Assembly (NCBI GenBank): GCA_001938485.1
Contig: MQRK01196814.1
Span: 4,922-59,396 of the forward strand
Direction of reading: 5' to 3'
DNA: 54,475 bases
Source of the DNA: Girardia tigrina
Taxonomy: Eukaryota
In this document: one piece after another, positions 8,870-46,165 of the stretch
Numbering within the stretch: the first letter of the stretch is position 1
Layout: each line of letters opens with the position of its first letter
Position numbers and translations under genes: made by a program
Notes under the pieces: model-generated
Database searches by the model: none
What the model was told of the DNA's origin: nothing
Seen by the model: only the letters and a program-made list of their open reading frames with translations

Positions 8870-9622
8870 AGGTGCTTCGACCACAGGTGCTTTGACCATA
8901 GTTGATATATATATATATATATATACACACTATATATGAGAACAAAGAATTTGTTTGTTTTTGGTCCCCATAAAGGCTGGTGCCAGGCCTACTAGATTTA
9001 ATATTAAACAGAAAGTATTCACATACATCATCATCAGCAATATTTGGAAATTTAGCATTTTATTATTTGTATAGTTCTCCATGATTTTGGCTTGTGTGGG
9101 TTAGAATCTAATATTTTAGTTGTTATTAATAATATGATTTTAAAATGTATTTAGAATATTAATTAGAATATTTTTTTAATATATTTTATTTCATTAAAGT
9201 ATTATTGGGTAATAATGGCAAAAATATTTTAATTACAAATTTTAAGTATTGAAATGACCTTAATGGGCAAAGTAAAGTTATTTCGATACTTAAAATTTTT
9301 AATTAAAATATTCTTTTTGTCATTATTACACAATAATACTTTAATAAAATAAAATATATTAAAAAAATTCTATTTAAACTTAATATACATTTTAAAATCA
9401 TATTATTAATAACAAATAAAATATTAGATTCTAGCCCACACAAGCCAAAATCATGGAGAACTATACAAATATTAAAATGCTAAATTTCCAAATATTGCTG
9501 ATGATGATGTATGTAATCATCGAAACATGTCCAATAAATATATAAAACAAGCTTTAATCAAATTATATTTTAAAAATATTAAAAGCTGTGGACAAACCAC
9601 CTATGGTCAAAGCACCGCATAC
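8870..9622. mobile_element. Foldback/Mutator-like element with 15-bp tandem subterminal units enclosing the palindrome
   Basis: GGTGCTTTGACCATAG on the left is inverted as CTATGGTCAAAGCACC on the right, and each side has two 15-bp units. Confidence 0.55.
9021..9514. repeat. ~494-bp near-perfect palindrome (foldback)
   Basis: ACATACATCATCATCAGCAATATTTGGAAATTTAGC... is the reverse complement of ...GCTAAATTTCCAAATATTGCTGATGATGATGTATGT. The arms match up to a short spacer near 9268. Confidence 0.93.
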
Positions 9623-10552
9623 CTTAATTTATTAACAATAAACAATGATATAAACTACTTATATTATTTTTGTTTTAATGAACATAAATTTTTATTTCAC
9701 AATCTAATGAAACAAATTATTTCTTTTTCACTGTCAGCATCAATAAAACGGAAACGGAACAAATTATGAAAATAGGAAGTATATTTTTTATCATAAAGTT
9801 TCATTTACATTATTTGTTATTCAGTTGTTATCAATAAAATATAAATATTATTTTAAAAATAAAACATTGTGAGTTAATTTTAATCGTTTAATTATAAGTG
9901 ACTCTTAATAAAGTTTCTCGAATCGTATAGGGCAAATATAAATTTATACTTTAATAATAAATATGTTTTTGTTGTCGTTGGAATAGCTAAAACTGGCAGG
10001 TTAAGAGTCAATTACAAATACGTTTGTAATCTATAACTTTTAAATACTGAAATTTAAGGAATTTATACAAACTACTTGATTAAAGCTTATAAATATTTGT
10101 AGTAAATTATTAATAAAAATACATTTGTTAATATATGAAGAAGAAAAGAAGTTTTCAAAGTCAATTTTTGAATTACTTTGAATTTTGAACAAGTAATTGA
10201 TCAACTAGTGATAATACTCTAATAATAATTGATCCTGTTACGAGACTCTAGCCAACTTTGGATTGATAATTAAGTAACGAATTCGTGTAAAGCCGAAAAA
10301 AAGTTTTCTTTCTGGAACTTGATACATGCGGTTTATAAAGGTATAGTATTGAAAAAAAATGATTGCAATGTGTAATATTACAAATGCATTTCAATTCTTT
10401 TTGTCATTTTTTTGCAGTCAAAGATCCATAGGCTTCGTTAGATTCTCTTAACGAAAAAGACGAATAAAAGAAATTTTGATCTATTTCTAAGAAATAATAC
10501 TTACAGAATGAAAGAAAATCTTCGATTTAAAGAAAATATATATATATATATC

Positions 10553-11160
10553 AACAAATAATATTTTAAATTTAAAAATTATTTCTCAATCATTTAAAGT
10601 TGAGAATATGTTTTGCAATAAATCACATACTCCTTTAGAATTGTGTTCGGACATTGTTTATCAATACACATGTAATGGATGCAATGCCACATACATCGGA
10701 GAGACTGCCCGTCATCTCTGCAAACGAGTGCAAGAACACAGTCAAAAAGGGGGAAAGAGTAATATTGCTGAGCATAAAAAAAACGTGTAAATGTAATGTG
10801 AGCATAAATGATTTTAAGATTTTGTGCAAGCATTTTAAAAATTATTGGGAGAGAGTGTCATGTGAAGCATTGTTGATAAGATCATGTGATCCTAAAATCA
10901 ATGTTCAAACAGCACTCTCAACCAATTTGTTAAGAGTTTTCGATTAGACTTACGTAAGTGATTGCATAATCATTCATTACTTATATAAAAGCAATAAAAA
11001 AGAACATAATCAGTGATCTGATGATGACGGTTAAACCGTCGAAATATATTATCACGAAGTATATTTTCAAATGGCGTTTATTTGTTCAAATGAAAAAATC
11101 TCATTTTAAAAGAAAAATTCAATTTCAGTCTTTTGCATTCGGTCATTTGACCGGATCCCA
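10553..11160 (+). mobile_element. 5'-truncated Penelope-like element: GIY-YIG endonuclease (frameshifted) plus 3' UTR/pLTR
   Basis: IVYQYTCNGCNATYIGETARHLCKRVQEH...NIAEHKK, then a frameshift in the A-run near 10780, then CKC...FKIL...EALLIRSCDPKINVQ. The CxxC and H...H Zn motif is present. It begins right after a (TA)n tract, and the 3' boundary is approximate. Confidence 0.9.
11013..11055 (+). ncRNA. Minimal type-I hammerhead ribozyme in PLE 3' region (pseudo-LTR)
   Basis: GTGAT-CTGATGA-T-GACGG-ttaaa-CCGTC-GAAA-TATA-TT-ATCAC. Stem I is GTGAT/ATCAC, the core is CUGAUGA...GAAA, stem II is 5 bp, stem III is palindromic (AATATATT) and the NUH triplet is AUU. It lies ~65 nt downstream of the GIY-YIG stop codon. 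Confidence 0.88.
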
Positions 11161-16946: not shown

Positions 16947-18374
16947 ATGTAGAAAATAAGAAGATCGTTTACGGTCGAAAGAAAATTGGAAATTATTGCT
17001 TATGCTGAAAAAACATGGTAACAGTGAAGCAGAAAGAGTATTCAATAAAAATGAAAAAAAAAACATTCGGGGTTGGAGAAAATCAAAAATCTTTTAAACG
17101 TACTGCCGAAAAAAAAGAAAGCAAAAAGAGGGGGATTTGCACATTGGCCCGATTTAGAAAAGGCCGTTTAAAAGTATGTAATTGAGAAAAGGGAGAAAGG
17201 GTTAAAAGTTTCTACAATTGATATTAGATTAACAGCGAAAAAATGGCAAAATATGATTTTAATATAGAAAATTTTAAAGGACCGAATAGTTGGTGCACAA
17301 GATTTATGAAAAGAAATAATTTAAGCATGAGAGCAGTAACTTCAGTCGGATAATCGTTGCCAACTGATTGGGAAGAAAAAAGATTCATTTTTACTTTTTA
17401 TTAAAGATAAAAAGAGAGATATCGATTTGAAGCATCTTGGGAATATGGATGAAGTTTCTGTTAGTTTCGATATTCCGGATACAAAGACAGTTGATAAAAA
17501 GGAAAAAAGATATTCTGATCAAAACAACCGGAAATGAAAAATATAATTTTACAGTTATATTAACTGTAACTGCCGATGAAAAGAGATGTAAACTAATGGT
17601 GATATTTAAAAGACTAGCAATGTCCAAAGAAAATTTTCCAAAAGGAATTATTGTTGAAGTCAATAAAAATGGATGGTCAAATGGTGAAATAATGAAAAAA
17701 TGGATACAAAAAATTTCGCTAGAAAGAAATGATTCCTTTTTAAACCAAAATCACTTATAATATACGATTATGCTAGATGTCATCTTACTGAGGAAGGTAA
17801 AAATGAATTCAAAAAATATTCTGAACTTGCAGTGATCCCTAGTGGCCTCACTAAAAGCTTTCAACCACTTGATCTATCAGTTAACAAATCGTTCAAATCT
17901 AAGCTAAAGATACATTGGGAAAATTGGATTATCAATGGTTGTCACATTTACAACAAAACGGGGAAAATCAAAAGAGCGACATATTCAGAAATATGCTATT
18001 GGATTTTTAAAAGCTGGGAAGATGTTACACCACAGTGTATTAAAAATGGATCTGAGAAAGCAGGGATTCAAACTTATGATGAAAATATCGAAGGTGATGA
18101 TGATTAGGAAATTGAAACTGGAAGTAAGAATAAAGATTTACAAGAAATCTAAACGGAATTTTTGCACATTTTCGAAACATCTGAAATAATAGATGATGAA
18201 GATTTTGATGAATTCAAGGAAATCGAATAATCTTAAAATAAAATTATTACTTTTGTTTTTATATATTGATGTTTTTATTTTTATGTAAGTCGCACACGCG
18301 TATAAGTCTAACCATTTTTTTTTAATTTTCATATTTTTTTATATAAGCCGCGGTTTATAGTCCGATATAGACTG
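16947..18374 (+). mobile_element. pogo/Tc2-type DNA transposon, transposase pseudogene with right terminus
   Basis: Brinker-type DNA-binding domain (RRSFTVERKLEIIAYAEK..HGN), CENP-B-type HTH (WCTRFMKRNNLS) and DDE_1 motifs GNMDE, IIYDYARCH and QPLDLSVNKSFK, with many frameshifts. The 3' end TATAAGCCGCGGTTTATAGTCCGATATAGACTG is followed by TA. The left TIR was not located. Confidence 0.88.
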
Positions 18375-18376
18375 TA

Positions 18377-18832
18377 ATGTAAACCTTTTCTGCTTTTTTA
18401 ATAGTTTTTCTAAAAATGATTCAGAATAGCTATTTTTATGCATACCTTCTGTTAGTTTATCTATGCTTGCATCATCTTTTGCATATGTTGTTGACCGAGA
18501 CCAACATCTAAATATCAAACCTTTTACCATACTTCTTTTATATTTAGTTTCATAAAAACTTTGTGTAGTAGTATGTAACACTGTACCTGTTTTCTTTCTA
18601 TAAATCTCTGTCTCGTTATGACTACCTTTCCTCTCACTCAACAAATCTAGAAATGACAAAACACCATTCTTCTCAAGCTCAACCGTGAAAACAATATTAG
18701 AATGAAGGAAATTAAAATAAGATAAAAACGGCTGCATATTTTCACGTTCTTTAAAAACAAGAAAAATATCATCAACATATCGTTTATAAGCTAAAGGTCT
18801 AACACCCGTGAACAAGTGAATTTTATCTTCAA
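18377..18832 (-). mobile_element. PLE RT relic, motifs C-E and thumb
   Basis: YKRYVDDIFLVF...LHSNIVFTVELEKNGVLSFLDLL...IYRKKT...LIFRCW. Confidence 0.92.
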
Positions 18833-19478
18833 TGTATTGGGTTCGTAATTAAGATCAAGATTCATAACTATAAAAAATAATTTCTATCACATATTACATT
18901 TTACAAACAAATTTATAAGGAACAATATTTTCAATTTGCATAAACAAGATTTTTTATGAATTCTAAATATAAATATCAATATAATAATTAGTGATATAAC
19001 ATTGATTTTATTTTTAAAAAGTTTTGTATAAATTAAAAATTTATTTTCAATTTTTGTTAATCCAAAATATGATTTTAAACATTAATTATAAAAATCATTT
19101 TCGCTTTAAATTTCAATGTTAAATTGATTTCCAAAAATATTTATTTCCATTGTTTTATTTTAAATATTAATTGTAAAAATTATTTCTAATTTAATTTCAA
19201 TTTCGTAAAATATTGATTTTCACTTTGGATTTTAAGCATTAATTATAAAAATCCTTTTCTGACTTAAATTTGGATGTTAAAAATCGTTTTTCTAAAATAT
19301 TTATTTTCCCTTCGGATTTTAACATTAACTGTAAAAATACTTTTCAATTAAAATTTTCATTTTTAAATTACTTTTCTAAAAACTTATGTAGATAAATTAT
19401 TTGAACTTATTTTAATTATAAATATGATTTCACATTTTAAATTTTCAAAAATCTAAAGTTCACCAAAAGTTCCTAACA
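18833..19478. mobile_element. 646-bp TG...CA insertion (solo-LTR-like or MITE-like) inside the PLE RT
   Basis: Ends are TGTATTGGG...CCTAACA, flanked by CAA on both sides. Removing it restores the in-frame IFLSNVEDKIHLF. The interior contains a degenerate ~158-bp tandem duplication. Confidence 0.65.
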
Positions 19479-19605
19479 CAACATTAGACAGAAAAATAGA
19501 TCCAAGTGTTCGTGCCAAAGGAGAACCCATGGCAACACCGTCTACCTCTTTATACCAATCATTGTTAAAAAATATGAACATTTGATGTTGTAAAAGTAAG
19601 TAATT
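19479..19605 (-). mobile_element. PLE RT relic, motif B
   Basis: FFNNDWYKEVDGVAMGSPLARTLGSIFLSN. Confidence 0.88.
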
Positions 19606-20929
19606 CATGAAAGGTAATATCATCAAGCCTATCATGCTCATCAATTTTACCTTTCCAGAGATCACAACAGAGATCAAATGTTTCTGTAAGAAAAAATGAG
19701 AGCGAGTGGATCTCTATCTTCTATTAACTAAATAAATTACTAATCACAAAGTAATCAGGAACATTTATTATTTAGCATAATAAAAATCAGGTTGTTGTAA
19801 AATTAGATAGTCTAAATGTCAATTCATTTTGTGTTATGGAAATAAATAGATTGGGTTCCTGATATCCAAATCAGCAATAAGTATGTTTCTGTACCAGTAA
19901 AAATGCGTCAACTGAAATAGCCACCATGAGGCTTGTTGAACAAATGCTGATTCCATGTTTAGACTGTTACTAAACATTCATCGGGTGAAACTCACAATGC
20001 AAGTGGTTTAGGTGCCGGTAGTTTGATGGAAATTCATCGGCGAGAATGCCATGTGATATGAATTTCCAGTACCGGCTAAACCAGAAAACCCGATAGATGA
20101 ATTGTGATCCGGTTGGATGCATCACCACTAATGTTGTGGAAATGAATTTGTTGATTTTCTCAATGCGAAAAAAATCCGCTGACATTGATTGGTACAGAAT
20201 ACTTAACACTGGATTGGGATGATATAACTCTATTATTAGGGCCTATGATTGACACATTATGTGTTTTCATCGTAATATAATCCAAGTAGTCTTGGACTAA
20301 GAGTTTGATTGGGGAAAAGCGTTTTTTGAACTGCCCTATTAGAATAGCACAAATCAATAAAATAGGCATTCCAACATACATAAAAATTACATTGTCATGC
20401 TTTAAACAAAACATACTCACTTGTTACAGGAAATGAATGACTGATTAATAAAATCAAATTCTAGATAAAAGTTACACATAAAAATTCAAATTATCGGTAT
20501 GACAGTTAAAAATAATCATAATAAACTGAGGCTTATACTAAAAATAAAATAACCATAATAAATACAGTGTCTTTTGATATTTGGGAGGTAGTCAATCGAT
20601 TCATTGATGGTTATGGCACAGCTGCATGTTATCACCAGGCATTCCACAATTGAAATGTCGAGATAAATTAGATATCGTTAATGTGCTTTACTAGTAACAG
20701 ATCGTCTTGAGAATGAGGTTCCTCGTGACTCTGGACTCGATCGACTCGTTACAAGATAGATCGATATGAGACATTGGGAGAGGTTAATTTAGCGATTTCT
20801 CGTTCTTGTTTCGATGAGTTCGGTCAATGGAAATCGTTCGGAATGATAATTTGTTCAATTCGATACGAAATTTTCTCGGTCAATCGATTCAAATATTAAA
20901 AAATCGATTTTATTTAATTTAATTAATAA

Positions 20930-20972
<43 letters not shown>

Positions 20973-20991
20973 TTCAAATGTAGGGTCACTA

Positions 20992-21285
20992 CAGTTTCCA
21001 TTAATACATTTGTGGAGAGACTTCCATTGTCGAAAGAAATTATGAATTTATTTTTATTACCCAAATCAAAGCTTGAAATTAATTCAACAAATTCAAAGCT
21101 ATTCTTACACTGGAACTCAGATGAAACCAAATGTTTTAATTTAGAATTCCAAAACTTTGCAATACATTATTGAGATGCTTGAATCATCGATAAACAGGTC
21201 TCATTGGAATACCATCCTTATGTACCTTAGAAAATCCATATAGTTTAGCAGGCTGAGAACCATTTGGACATAAAGGATTTTCTAA
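20992..21285 (-). mobile_element. PLE reverse transcriptase relic, motifs 1/2 and A
   Basis: Minus-strand translation gives LCPNGSQPAKLYGFSKVHKDGIPMRPV and KNSFEFVELISSFDLGNKNKFIISFDNGSLSTNV..ETV. It is frameshifted and absent from the ORF track. Confidence 0.8.
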
Positions 21286-22082
21286 CGTCTTATCGATGCG
21301 ACCGTTTTTACAAAGTTTACTCAAAAGAGAACGTAGAAATTCCCCATCTTTCAATGGTGAAAATTTCCCATTTTTACAAAAATTATAAATAATAATAATA
21401 AATTATATTATAAACATTATTAAAATAACAGATAAAAATTATGGGGAAAGAAATGCAAAACCGATATAGGAAACCCCATTAGCGGTCGGAAATCACGAAG
21501 TAAAATAAATAACAGATGGAAGAGGAAGAGTTGCTTTAACAGATGAAAAGATGTATTTGTAAAAGATTTTTGACCACTTTAATCTGTATTGGAAGATTTG
21601 ATTAACATCAACAATTGTTAAAAAGTTATGTGTTTGACTTTGACTAGATTTCAGGTTTATGACTTATCTTGTCATTAGTAATAGAAAAGAAGTTAATATA
21701 AATGAGGTAGTGATGAAATGTCAAGTAGTGATTGATCGGATCAAGCAGCCGCCAACACTTATCGAAAATGTAAAAACAATTTGCAAATATAGTAATAGAA
21801 ATTGCTGTGAAATATACATATAATGAGACAGCAAAGAAACTTTGTTTATATTTTTCTGTAGGCGTTTTTGGTGTAACAAAACAAATGAATAATAATAATT
21901 TTTAATTTTAAAATGTGGTGGTCTTTTGCATCTATAAACTTTATCTTTTCATTAATGATCTTTGGTAATAATAGTTTATTTCAATAAAAACGGTAAAACT
22001 TTATTCCAATAACATTTGAACGATCTTTTTCATAAGTCATTCTTCAAAAATTAACAGAAAATTATTTGAATTGTATATATAT

Positions 22083-22304: not shown

Positions 22305-23737
22305 CAGGGTTTGTCAGCACATTTCAGAATGACATCATCACATTTAAGATTTTTGTAAATCAATTTAAAAATTTTGTATTTCCATTTAAGAAATTCGTCA
22401 ATTCATTTATGACTTTGTGTAAATATTGCGAAATATACAAGTTTACAAATACCTAAATCACAGAAACAAAAACTAAAATGAATAGCTAAAATTTATTTAA
22501 TTCCCATCATATATTGGTGTTCTACTCAAACACTTTGGAAGGATTGAATAGACATTCCTAAAATATCCAGAACAATCTTCAGCCGTTATATATTCACTAA
22601 ACTTATCTATATAGGCAAATAATTCTGCTTCAGACTTTGGTCGTGATTCACGTATCATTCCTTTCCATTTCGAAAACATATTTTCAATCGGATTGAGGAA
22701 TGGCGAATACGGTGGCAAAAACATCAATTCGCATATATTTGCATCCACATGCATTGCTAAAAATTTGTCTTTTATGGATTGGTGCTTTTGAAATCGGACA
22801 TTATCCATAATGACTACAGAACGACAGATATGTTCATCTTTGATATACTGTAAAATTTCATCGATGAAATTAGCAAAGGTTGCTGTGTTGAACGCCGATG
22901 TTTGGGTCACATATTTTACTATTCCACCCTTATTCATTGCGCAACATGCGGAAATATTCCTTGATTTAAGGCATTTCACGTTATGTACAGCTGGTGATCC
23001 AGCTAAAGATCGTCCTCTTTTACTTCTAATAGAAACATTAAAACCAACTTCATCAACGAAAAATAAATTNNNNNNNNNNNNNNNNNNNNNNNNNNNNNNN
23101 NNNNNNNNNNNNNNNNNNNNNNNNNNNNNNNNNNNNNNNNNNNNNNNNNNNNNNNNNNNNNNNNNNNNNNNNNNNNNNNNNNNNNNNNNNNNNNNTAAAG
23201 CAACCAATATATCTGTCAATTGTTTTCAGACAGACAGCAACATTAAATTTTGAACGCAAAAGTCCTTGAATGTGCTGAAGAGTAATTCCGCAATTTTCAT
23301 CAATCCATGATTTACATGATTTAATGGCATCAACATGGTCTTCGGTTAAAGCTTTTCTTCTTGGTCCTCCTTTCAGTTTTTGTTCGATCCTATTTTCTTT
23401 CTTGTAGACCTGAATAATCGAATACACTGTTTTATACTTCAAATTAAGAATTGAAGCAATTTCGATAACTGAATAGTTCGTAATATACGAGTCAATAATC
23501 ATTTCCCTTATTTCATTACAAACTGCCTATCCAAATAAAATATATATGTAGTAAAAAATAAAAAACAGTTTACTCTACTTTACAAATTTAAATAATTATA
23601 ATTGTAAACTAAATATATATTTAAACAAATTACTAAATTGACTTACAAAATTCTTAAATTGATTGTCAAAATTCTTAAACGGATTTACAAATTCTGACGT
23701 TGAATTACAATTTTCTGAAATGTGCTGACAAACCCTG
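22305..23737 (-). mobile_element. IS630-Tc1-mariner DNA transposon (Gambol/IS630-like), DD39E
   Basis: Perfect 25-bp TIRs CAGGGTTTGTCAGCACATTTCAGAA (22305-22329 and 23713-23737), TA on both flanks, and ~21-bp subterminal repeats. Confidence 0.93.
22497..23502 (-). CDS. DDE_3-type transposase interrupted by an assembly gap
   Basis: N-terminal HTH (EIASILNLKYKTVYSII..GGPR) and catalytic FVDEVGF, IMDNVRF and LPPYSPFLNPIE. The frame across the N gap cannot be checked. Confidence 0.8.
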
Positions 23738-31099: not shown

Positions 31100-31590
31100 T
31101 ATATTTTATAGTAACAATATATTTCAGTGCGTTTCACGCTTAATTAACAAACATTTCGTTGTCTTATATATAGCAAATTGATGATTATGCAAACAACTTG
31201 CGTAAAAAATAATTAAATATTTTCAAAACAGTGAAAGAGAGACTTGTTTGGACATGAAGGATAAGGAGATTTAATCAATAATGCCTCTCAAATGACTCTT
31301 TCCAATATTTTTTAAAATGCTGCATCATATTTTAAATTTGATGTTTTCACATTCAATCTACAAACTTTCATATGTCCAGCAAAGTTACTCTCATTACCGA
31401 ATTGTGCATTCTCCAGAATCCGTTTACAGAGATGACGAGCAGCCTTTCCAATGTATGTGACTTTGTACTTAATATACAAAAATTGATAAACCATATTGGA
31501 ACATAAACTCAAAAGAGCATGAGATTTATTGCAGAAAATACTTGCAATTTTGTAAGATTTAGAAATCATTTTTAAATCCAAGTTCAAATT
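31100..31590 (-). mobile_element. Degenerate PLE GIY-YIG 3' fragment
   Basis: IFCNKSH...NMVYQF...TYIGKAARHLCKRILEN, then in another frame EALLIKS. Clearly homologous to 10553-10947, including the 3' UTR. Confidence 0.85.
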
Positions 31591-31669
31591 TATAATTAAA
31601 ATTTATAATATAAGATTCATATAAATATTTTAAAAATGACGATAATGAATTTTTAAAAGTCAAAAAATT

Positions 31670-32070
31670 TTTGTCAGAATATATTGTGATTAATTTCGAC
31701 GGATCAACCGTCATCATCAGACTGAATTAACAATGATATACTCGCGTTTATATATCAAAGCAATGTTTATGTAATCATTATGTCATTTAAATCATGAAAA
31801 TACTTTCAATAAAGTTGAAGAGGACAGTGTTTGGACATTGATTTTAGGATCAAAAGATTTGATCAACAATGCTTCACATACAACAATGCCTCTCCCAGTA
31901 ATTATCAAATTGTGAACACAAAATCTTAAAATTACTTACGTCAACTTTACTATTCAAACAGTTCTTCTTATGTTGAGCAATATTGCTATCACTTTCCCTG
32001 CGATTATGTTCCTGAATTCGTTTACAGAGATGACGACAAGACTCTCCGACGTATGTGGCGTAAGACACAG
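31670..32070 (-). mobile_element. PLE GIY-YIG 3' fragment with hammerhead, in tandem with 31100-31590
   Basis: ATYVGESCRHLCKRIQEH...NIAQHKKNC...FKILC..FDNYWER, a frameshift, then CEALLIKSFDPKINVQ. Confidence 0.88.
31686..31722 (-). ncRNA. Minimal type-I hammerhead ribozyme in PLE 3' region
   Basis: Minus strand reads gt-CTGATGA-T-GACGG-ttgat-CCGTC-GAAA-TTAA-TC-ac. Core and stem II match the 11013 copy, the loop differs, stem III is the palindrome ATTAAT and the triplet is AUC. Stem I is weak (2 clear bp). Confidence 0.82.
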
Positions 32071-35000: not shown

Positions 35001-36162
35001 TTTGATTAATATTCCGATGTTGACACTTCATATTCATGTGTAGATTTGTCGACAAGTGTCGCCCGTTTTGTGATTTATGGAGGGTGTTGAATGGAAAATA
35101 TAATTTAATTAGATAAATATCCAGATAATATTGTCATATTATAACAAATTTGAAAGTAAATTTATTTTAAAACGTAGAAAATCGAAATAATAAATTATGA
35201 TTTTTTATAAGTAAAGTTAATATTGATAGCTATTTGACTAAATGTATTGTAATTGTAACATAAATAATTTAGAAATCATCAAATAAAAAATTATTATTTT
35301 TTACAAACAAAATATTCATCCGTTGCCAATTTACTTCCTAAATATTTCTTTTCAACAGATCATAACCATTATCCATTTACAATAAACTAATAAAAACATT
35401 GATCTATTGAAATATATTGTCACAAAAATATTTGTGAAATGATAATATTTTTTGATATAAAGTTTTTATTCTATCTAAAACTTTTAGAGTCTACCTTAAA
35501 AGGAAAAACTTACTGATAGAATAATTTTTCATCTTTATATATATATATATATANNNNNNNNNNNNNNNNNNNNNNNNNNNNNNNNNNNNNNNNNNNNNNN
35601 NNNTATATATATATATATAATAAACTCAAAAAATTACTGTTTGATTGTAAAAATAAAAATTAGAAATGAGTGAAAACGAAAAACAAAAATAAAAAAAATT
35701 GAAGTTCTAATGTCAGATTCATGGTAAAACAGAAATCGAAACGTAAAAACTGACTGTAATTATGATCAAGATGATAAATTGGAAAATTTTAAATCAGAAA
35801 ATTCGGAAACAATTGAGAAAAAAAGTGTCTTAACTTTCAATTTGTAAAAATTTCTCAATCGATGATAAATATAAATCGACTATTATTTTGGAATCTTTAA
35901 TGGACAAATTTATTACATTTGGTTTTTTTTGTGAATTTGTCTAATGAAAAATTTATTCTTTATTGGAAAAAATTATTTTGTAAAAGAAATTATTATTATA
36001 TGAGATTTTCGATTGTTTTATTCGAGTAAAATAAAAATATATATTAGCGGCGTTTTGAATTGAATAAAACGAATTTCATAACGACTGTTTATAATGATTT
36101 CGAATTCGAATTGACAACCGATTGTTCAAAGTATTCAAACGATAAATAAAGAAATTGTCATT

Positions 36163-36480
36163 GTGAGTCCGATGTTGAAAATCGAAGCGTCAATTGATAG
36201 TAATAATGAATCCGCCAGAAATAATGATCAGACTCAAGAGTCACAAATTCTCTCATCGAATCTCAAGCCTGAAGCGACGTCGATTAAGAAATCACGAGGT
36301 CATATCGATCGTTATAACGGACTGTCGGAGGAAGAAGTCGTTCAACGAACATTACCGGATTTTTTTAAAGAAAATCTCGATTTAATTGTGGTGGGAGTTA
36401 ATCCGAGAATGACGTCGGCATATTTCGGTCACCGTTATGCCGGGATCGGGAATCATTTTTGGACATGCATCACAGAAGCC
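36163..36480 (+). pseudogene. TDG: G/T mismatch-specific thymine DNA glycosylase (TDG/MUG family), 5' part only
   Basis: DRYNGLSEEEVVQRTLPDFFKENLDLIVVGVNPRMTSAYFGHRYAGIGNHFWTC. The conserved GxNPG reads GVNPR, and homology stops at 36480, where GC-rich unrelated sequence begins. Confidence 0.8.
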
Positions 36481-38573: not shown

Positions 38574-39334
38574 CTTTGTTTAATTTATATAAAAGACAAT
38601 TTTTTGATCGTCAAATAAATTAATCATTGGCCAAATTATAAATAATAAACATCCTACACAATTGACCATCAGAAATATTTTGAAACAATTATGTAAATTT
38701 TTGTATGATCTGAAGTTAGAAGTCCTTCATCCTCCTAAGAATAATTTATTAAATTACTGATTTATCAAATATTGGCAATGTCAATGCAATACAACGCACA
38801 ATGTTAAGGCTCAGTAGATCATTCACACTTTTGTAAGACGGAAAGGTAAAGATTGACAAAATTTTAATATTTAATGTATCATACAATTATTAATGTTCAT
38901 AAAAATTATTAAAACAGTTGCTCATAATTTAAAAATTAATTATGTTTTTATTAGAGTTGAAAGACTTCCTATATTCTGAAATATAATTTTAAAACTTTTT
39001 ACGACCTTTGTCCTGTATTTTGAGAGAGAGAACAAGACGTCTCTCCAGAATATGTAACCTTATACACCTTATATATGTGTTGATATACAAGGTCCGAATT
39101 CAATATAAAAAGAGTTGCTGTTATTTGATAAAATACATTTTGCATCTTATTTGTTTTTGATATTATTTATAAATTAAAAAATATCATTCAATTTTACAAA
39201 CCTAATAGTAAATTAATTAAATTAACCTTTTAAATATTTATTAAGTTTATTTTAATATTTTTGTAAGACGTTACGTAGCAAATAACCTATTAATATTCTA
39301 TTTAAATTAGTATTAAAAATGACTTGTATTGTAT

Positions 39335-42319: not shown

Positions 42320-42510
42320 AATAAAACCTACAAATTTCTACAAATGATGTGTAGATAATGTTTCTTTGATTTTCCGAAATCAATCCCTGATAAAACCATT
42401 CTTGAAATTCATGAATGGTCTTCATTCGAATATTAAATTTACTACATAACTTTATGTAAATAACGAAATTCATTTTCTCGAGATTCTTGTCATCAAAATA
42501 AATGACATAA
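42320..42510 (+). mobile_element. Decayed PLE RT fragment (motifs C-E)
   Basis: FYK*CVDNVSLIF...KPFLKFMNGLHSNIKFTT*...NEIHFLEILV aligns with the 18377-18832 RT. Confidence 0.7.
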
Positions 42511-45310: not shown

Positions 45311-45844
45311 TTTGATGAATATTGACAACTTTTACAAAACAAATTAAAATTTTGGGGTATATTGATTGCTTGAACGTCATTAGAACTTAGAAATATTATC
45401 AATTATTTTATTTATTTTCAGAAAGAAGGAATCATCCTAGAACCATTAATGCCTCACATACGCTCACTCCAAATAATGTATTAAAATCTTATAATAAAAT
45501 ATCTACAAATCCAGTTTAAAAGGTTTCTCAAGTTTCTTTGGTAATTTACTTCTTACATATGTATTAATCCGGACGATAATAACACAAAACCCGTTACAAG
45601 TTAATAGTATAACATATATAGTAAACAATAATTTGAAATGTTTAAAATAGATATTTGTTATAACATTTTTAAAAATCAACGTTGAACATGTTTCAATAAC
45701 AATCAGCAATTTTATTTTTGTTTTATTTATTTGCTTTATTATTTTTTTAAATTTTTATAATAAAAATGGTAACATTTTGTGAAAGACAATGTTAAATTTT
45801 ATTGGTTAATATTTTATTATATTTATTTATTCTATTTAAAGTTA

Positions 45845-46165
45845 TTTAATATTGAGTCTTCTTTCCTTTTCCCATTTCACATATGGGTTAAAGTGTCTTA
45901 CTAGCAATGATTCACAATACAACCTCCCATAATGCGAATCAAAGTTCTGATGAAAAGAAAAATCCTCTTTTGAATTTGATGAAGTTCTATCTTTGTAACA
46001 TCTGCAGTGATCAAGAACTTTACTCGATCTATTCGACTGTGAGTGTTCACTAATCCGTGTATTGAAATGACGATTTGTCTCTCTAATAAACGAGTTTTTA
46101 TCTCTTTGACAATTAAATTTAATAATCAGATTAGCTTTCACGAATTTGTTTAGTTTTGGATTTCA
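45845..46165 (-). mobile_element. Decayed PLE GIY-YIG fragment (different subfamily)
   Basis: NLIIKFNC...SFIRETNRHFNTRISEH...VLDHCRC...ESLLVRHFNP. Confidence 0.75.

Follow-up and report, generated by a model that had tools for sequence, protein, structure and literature searches.

A minimal type I hammerhead motif, conserved in a high-copy Penelope-like element of Girardia tigrina, within the pseudo-LTR of a truncated copy

The DNA analysed (the window) is a 54,475-nt stretch from Girardia tigrina. On its forward strand lies the 3′ end of a Penelope-like element (PLE) ORF, followed by a pseudo-LTR (pLTR) containing a minimal type I hammerhead motif whose core spans 11018–11050. The parts of the locus are listed below.

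10550–10947, + strand: 3′ end of the PLE ORF, GIY-YIG endonuclease with CxxC..H..H; 5′-truncated and frameshifted
10982–10990, + strand: TATA box TATATAAAA, putative promoter element from the sequence
11010–11014, + strand: initiator-like TCAGT, with A at 11012 the predicted transcription start
11013–11017, + strand: hammerhead stem I, 5′ strand GTGAT
11018–11024, + strand: core residues C3–A9, CUGAUGA
11024–11026, + strand: AUG formed by A9, the extra U and G10.1; in tandem copies, codon 1 of the PLE ORF
11025, + strand: extra U at 9/10.1
11026–11030/11036–11040, + strand: stem II GACGG/CCGTC, 5 bp with a 5-nt loop
11041–11044, + strand: GAAA
11044–11049, + strand: palindromic stem III hexamer AUAUAU, with T16.1 at 11049
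11050, + strand: U17; cut predicted after 11050
11051–11055, + strand: stem I, 3′ strand ATCAC; 5-bp allele
11056–11086, + strand: rest of the pLTR, with the first ORF codons; short 3′ end near +63

The ORF fragment begins beside a (TA)n run, is frameshifted within the endonuclease, and has a stop codon that ends at 10947. The first-pass annotation had set the motif behind a GIY-YIG endonuclease; one is indeed present, though only as this truncated, frameshifted piece. The fragment itself did not score above the Pfam GIY-YIG cut-off, and the domain was detected above cut-off in an unbroken sister copy (L004, E 6.9e-5). An optional tail, reaching to about +100 in the family, is missing from the window copy.

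The motif has the invariant residues of a type I hammerhead, CUGANGA, GAAA and UH around stems I and II. It also has the features of the PLE minimal hammerheads, namely an extra nucleotide at 9/10.1, a G10.1-C11.1 pair, a palindromic stem III and location in a pLTR. With both stems required to be 5 bp long, the window gave a single match, which was equalled in 1 of 200 dinucleotide shuffles; the core, both 5-bp stems, the extra U and the upstream TATA box are all where the earlier reading had them. When the descriptor was combined with G10.1-C11.1 and a palindromic stem III, three motifs were found in the window and none in 100 block shuffles. Stem III, described at first pass as self-complementary, is a palindrome, but its pairing part is the hexamer AUAUAU and not an octamer, because the octamer's flanking A14 and U17 are core residues. 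Rfam hammerhead models, which had been named as a check, gave no match in the whole window or in a 171-nt segment at E ≤ 10. This does not disqualify the motif, since the minimal forms of PLEs were themselves defined by descriptor, in the account of PMC4209133. Judged from its sequence, the window motif is a real hammerhead, ordinary for its class, for which cleavage is predicted.

Positions 10550–11086 belong to a repeat family. In the AT-rich, 1.43-Gb assembly that was searched, there were 3,646 candidates, and the 40 that were scored were 95–97% identical, the self match aside. Pfam identified RVT_1 (E 1e-10) plus GIY-YIG in family copies, and natural copies encode the reverse transcriptase (RT) along with a C-terminal GIY-YIG in a single ORF, as expected for an EN+ PLE. 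There were 363 longer protein homologues, most of the 120 listed being 822–890 aa; a PDB sequence search matched only retron RTs. One copy (L052) has the arrangement pLTR-ORF-pLTR, with hammerheads at 654 and 3212, 2,558 nt apart and flanking the ORF. Also characteristic of EN+ PLEs are the pLTRs arising from partial tandems, the inverted 5′-truncated copies and the optional tail of 30–40 bp seen here, with pLTR, tandem, tail and clade criteria as given in the relevant part of PMC8557442. By the motif criteria of that source, rather than by a tree, the element points to the Penelope/Poseidon clade: the endonuclease CCHH and a DKG motif were seen by eye in translations of natural copies, and the CX2-5CxxC linker finger was not. 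The Hydra, Naiad, Neptune and Nematis clades were rejected, as CCHH is present, the endonuclease is not N-terminal and there is no linker zinc finger. A non-LTR retrozyme was likewise rejected, as the motif belongs to an RT-endonuclease ORF and not to non-coding tandem repeat units.

The assignment to a minimal type I hammerhead of a PLE pLTR, made at first pass, is borne out by the RT and GIY-YIG of the family, by its pLTR-ORF-pLTR copies and by conservation with compensatory changes. The palindromic stem III, too, is of a form for which a dimer is reportedly required. It is close to certain that the window holds a conserved hammerhead of this kind, in the pLTR of a 5′-truncated copy of a high-copy PLE. 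The copy in the window is dead, a 3′ fragment that no ORF follows and that has no partner of its own subfamily within the window; the reading frame from its AUG enters flanking DNA and runs for 46 codons.

Conservation of the core across genomic copies, on which the first-pass reading had been made to depend, was found. The exact core and stem II pattern gave 12,396 genomic matches, and the reversed control 0; sister subfamilies showed compensatory changes in both of these paired regions, stems I and II, and likewise in the palindrome of stem III. Residues were tallied in 67 distinct copies, from 69 loci at the head of the list of matches. Position 7 varied freely (28 C, 22 A, 17 U), the base inserted at 9/10.1 was U in 66 of the 67, and the stem III hexamer was palindromic in 62 (AUUAAU 36, AUAUAU 26). 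Position 17 was U, A or C across subfamilies; G17 occurred in 55 genomic copies, against 5,615 with AUAUAU-H alone. The 5-bp allele of stem I carried by the window copy is in the minority, with 217 exact copies against 1,258 having 3-bp pairing.

To assess covariation, ten natural copies were hand-picked from 7–8 subfamilies, one or two per subfamily. Bases could pair in 92% of cells, 17 cells had double changes, and these fell in 6 of 13 pairs. None of 500 shuffles paired as highly, and slid controls gave 25–68%; the ten copies are related, so the shuffle test overstates significance. Stem II was 100% paired, with double changes in 2 pairs, and in stem I the inner two pairs were 100% paired and the outer three 60–70%. 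The residues coded over stem II vary between sister subfamilies (MTVKPSK, MAGNPPK, MVENPPK) while the pairs stay intact, which indicates selection on the RNA fold.

These data bear on whether the motif could be a chance look-alike, retained only because it codes for the first residues of the protein. The motif does cover ORF codons 1–11, and the failure of Rfam to match it would agree. Against this, C3–G8 precede the AUG and are invariant, the pairs of stem II outlast changes in the residues encoded there, and PLEs of an outgroup retain the motif outside the coding frame. A look-alike is already contradicted by the compensatory changes, and we regard it as extremely improbable.

A second alternative is that the fold is kept for protein binding or RNA dimerisation, as in assembling an RNP at the ORF's 5′ end, with catalysis a residual or passenger property. 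The weak stems and U17 would suit such a role. In PAc, the Poseidon element of Anolis carolinensis, the element's protein binds its ORF over the first 172 nt (PMC11167929), and Naiads and most Chlamys are described as thriving without hammerheads, which may instead parasitise PLEs (PMC8557442). A purely structural role would, however, fit poorly with an invariant catalytic core with position 7 free, G17 nearly absent and H17 variable as U, A or C. This pattern across subfamilies is that of selection for catalysis, and the structural explanation is accordingly rated as decidedly unlikely.

The first-pass annotation had regarded the motif as an unusual variant. This is not borne out, for the published minimal hammerhead consensus of metazoan PLEs (PMC4209133) already includes the base inserted at 9/10.1, the G10.1-C11.1 pair, a short helix I and the palindrome at 15.2-16.2, and so covers all the structural features picked out at first pass. 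As with those minimal hammerheads, in the description given there, the family is of type I, exists as thousands of solo copies from truncated elements, and forms several covarying consensus families within one genome. Stem II is 5 bp here and 7–8 bp in the Schistosoma minimal hammerheads (PMC4209133). Relative to the PLE consensus, most copies here pair only 2–3 bp in stem I, and H17 is U in the subfamily of the window. Non-LTR retrozymes also carry type I hammerheads thought to be dimeric, and have been proposed to derive from PLE pLTRs (bioRxiv 10.64898/2026.07.22.740005; PMC7229834). Retrozymes are non-coding tandem repeats (bioRxiv 10.64898/2026.07.22.740005), whereas the motif here lies on an RT-endonuclease ORF, outside any short tandem array.

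In tandem copies, the AUG made by A9, the extra U and G10.1 opens the ORF of the next unit, which continues for 249 codons in L107/L199, 151 in L104 and 84 in L118; in the remaining copies among the 30 loci, the ORF was broken earlier or the motif was absent. The same geometry is reported for PAc, in which the ORF starts at stem II and the cut falls 26 nt after the start codon (PMC11167929). PAc has a different host and sequence, and activity has been shown there; for the present motif it is predicted. Sister subfamilies were examined through 80 regions taken for 150 protein matches (those with 57–68% identity). Of 81 matches in these, a core was present upstream in 33; it carried ATG in 31 of these 33, in frame in 23 and both in frame and open in 15.

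For the outgroup, a descriptor search was made of 79 metagenome loci with related PLEs. It returned 38 motifs, 37 of them on the sense strand; all 37 had the 9/10.1 insertion, in 30 cases as a U reading ATG. The N-terminus could be placed in 18 loci, and among these informative cases one at most had this AUG as the start of an unbroken ORF. In 4–5 of the 18, the start was elsewhere in the ribozyme before the cut, and in the rest it was downstream or unplaced. The general rule that the extra U is conserved because it belongs to a start codon was rejected on these counts (30/37 ATG, at most 1/18 unbroken start). Since the outgroup AUG is rarely the start, start-codon removal would not be a general rule of PLEs either; the outgroup loci show A9-U-G10.1 to be a consensus of structure, which serves only in some lineages, the present one included, as start codon too. 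Two further observations were made in the outgroup. In loci L307–L385 the triplet often starts an upstream ORF of 2–12 codons, and a U3-A8 core variant is present in about 16 of the 37 motifs.

Promoter-like elements were found just upstream of the motif. Among copies in which a TATA motif was found, it lay 33–39 nt before C3 in 38 of 40, across five subfamilies. TCAGT was called initiator-like by the Inr consensus; counted from the initial T of the TATA box, its A (11012) follows at 30 nt. The TATA-Inr spacing was 27–31 in four of the five subfamilies and 22 in the fifth. Together these elements predict a transcription start at about 11012. With such a start, the ribozyme would make up the first ~45 nt of the next unit's mRNA in a tandem. 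When RNA from the predicted start was folded in silico, pair probabilities were 0.55–0.77 for stem I and 0.98–1.0 for stem II; with longer upstream sequence included, two alternative hairpins masked the core. Penelope pLTRs of Adineta vaga similarly contain a TATA box, an Inr-like element and the first ORF codons (PMC3846280). The number of pLTR codons is 12 in Adineta, or 22 with the tail, and about 21 here, or 33 with the tail; the Adineta element also has an optional tail, of 31 bp, and inverted 5′-truncated copies (PMC3846280). The promoter and dimer logic of PLE hammerheads is reviewed in PMC6765202.

As to expression, part of the stretch is present in 20 of 21 runs, all of them assembled contigs that are uninformative on strand, start site and level. 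By analogy with D. virilis, an intron of 60 nt reaching from GTAAGT at 10954 to CAG at 11013, at the edge of stem I, was considered and rejected, as sister subfamilies lack the donor. No 10954/11013 joint occurred among the 15 shown of 37 joints from four runs, a weak observation given that these are contigs and the library type was mostly guessed.

The first-pass annotation took the ribozyme to process the RNA end behind the endonuclease. This is opposed by the tandems, in which the hammerhead forms the 5′ beginning of the following unit and holds its AUG. Because the ribozyme overlaps the AUG and lies just behind the likely promoter, it would cut the start off the mRNA and not trim the tail. 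The ends of genomic copies argue in the same direction. The 30 nt beyond the cut were common to another copy in 56 of 67 copies picked regardless of downstream sequence, compared with 2 of 29 in a flank control. Of the others, 3 were too short, and 8 did not share the 30 nt yet had a few family bases past the cut. In 36 distinct copies chosen to reach +30, the 3′ ends fell at +59 to +74 in 18 and at +89 to +110 in 16, with two earlier; the ends lie 35–80 nt beyond the cut site. Since genomic copies extend past it, the template's 3′ end is not set by cleavage. In PAc, two RT starts define the tail (PMC11167929), and an RT start is reported at +111–118, compared with 3′ ends of about +63 and +100 here.

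Among 46 junction copies examined for their 5′ ends, 14 run to a contig edge and 4 have a 5′ end within +24 to +33; of 80 sister loci, 8 have a 5′ end within +20 to +34. An end at exactly +28 was found by eye once in each set. In neither the 46 junction copies nor the 80 sister loci did 5′ ends pile up at the cut; they scatter broadly, and nothing sharp marks a cleaved end at which reverse transcription would have run off. In copies L173, L183 and L188 (5′ pLTR) and L124 (3′ pLTR), an in-frame 15-nt deletion between two AAATATATT repeats was observed. The deletion takes out the cut site and is represented by at least two independent copies.

These ends also bear on the processing and circularisation model of Cervera and de la Pena. 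There, tandem hammerheads would release a unit-length RNA; once closed into a circle by ligation, it would be reverse-transcribed over more than one unit. Tandem pLTR-ORF-pLTR copies exist, the palindrome is identical in both pLTRs, and a circle, as proposed in PMC4209133, would restore the AUG and tail and so agree with 3′ ends past the cut. A linear cleaved unit, however, would end at +27, and not only do most copies continue for 30 nt, but each of the 8 others, too, reaches past the cut. The 5′ ends without a pile-up at +28 also speak against the model, as does PAc, in which catalytic mutants insert equally well and the template is uncut RNA (PMC11167929). We therefore consider circularisation unlikely.

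The energetics suggest how cleavage might occur. In the folding calculations, closing A15.1-U16.1 of stem III within a monomer costs 5.4 kcal/mol. Because stem III cannot close within one molecule, two motifs would swap strands via the palindrome. The resulting double hammerhead is feasible, at a calculated −19.0 kcal/mol (−12.0 for the majority allele), but a non-catalytic stem II duplex is far more stable, at −30.8 kcal/mol (−26.0 for the majority allele). U17 and stems I of 2–3 bp predict poor activity. Published behaviour is similar: PLE minimal hammerhead monomers are inactive and dimers weakly active (PMC4209133), and in PAc the element's protein is needed for hammerhead cleavage, the dominant template being RNA left uncut (PMC11167929). 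The agreement of the energies with this behaviour favours slow, protein-assisted cleavage of a dimer. A point against is that in PAc no RNA-seq read was seen to end at the cut (PMC11167929). On these calculations and analogies, dependence of the predicted cleavage on dimer and protein is considered probable.

The sequence of events would then be as follows. The TATA box and initiator of the pLTR would start transcription at ~11012, so that the ribozyme leads the mRNA of the next tandem unit. Slow, protein-assisted dimer cleavage would take the cap and AUG off this mRNA. Uncut RNA would be the main template for reverse transcription, with RT starting at about +63 or +100. Cleavage would be an occasional side reaction, either disabling the RNA for translation or giving ends for circles. 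As a whole, the reading of a conserved PLE pLTR hammerhead placed over the start codon, whose slow, protein-assisted dimer cleavage would remove the cap and AUG, is held to be probable.

What such cleavage would achieve is a separate matter. A role in turning translation off may be suggested only tentatively. A lineage-specific off-switch, in which the protein joins two RNAs via the palindrome and the cut removes the cap and AUG, as a negative feedback that senses copy number, is more doubtful. A full-text literature search, in sources available in part, returned no translation off-switch role; the papers of 2014 and 2017 may already note the overlap with the start codon. The motif adds one family to a class known since 2014, and its novelty is at the level of sequence. 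With more than 12,000 copies and at least seven covarying subfamilies, the family is nevertheless handy material for asking whether PLE hammerheads serve translation control or circles or are incidental, and the TATA-Inr-hammerhead-AUG layout common to the subfamilies of this genome makes the translation-control question easy to pose.

Other elements were observed in the window. A second, unrelated minimal hammerhead core lies at 9498–9530 (+), inside a foldback repeat of ~600 bp (9021–9627) with 242-nt arms. It has an extra U, a 4-bp stem II, an ACAUGU palindrome, C17 and a 5-bp stem I. There were 1,480 candidates for the repeat, the 40 that were scored were 95–99% identical, and no PLE coding match was present in it at seven other loci. 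It may be a non-autonomous foldback element that bears a hammerhead and came from a PLE pLTR. A decayed foldback copy is found at 86–165 (−), and in L004 a piece of the repeat adjoins the copy of the PLE family.

At 31163–32059 (−) sister PLE subfamilies are represented by two 3′ fragments. One has an intact hammerhead (core from 31720), with an AUUAAU palindrome, C17 and a 2-bp stem I; in the other the core is deleted. Decayed PLE RT/endonuclease fragments were seen at 18393–21398 (−), 39000–39180 (−), 42339–42506 (+) and 45842–46162 (−), one of them with insertions. Pogo-like DDE_1 transposase fragments were identified by Pfam at 17431–18107 (+), and an apparent Tc1/IS630-type transposase was recognised by eye at 22497–23526 (−). 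Finally, an exon-like piece of a thymine/uracil DNA glycosylase at 36115–36480 (+), with a weak Pfam UDG match (E 0.016), is likely the host gene of the region.
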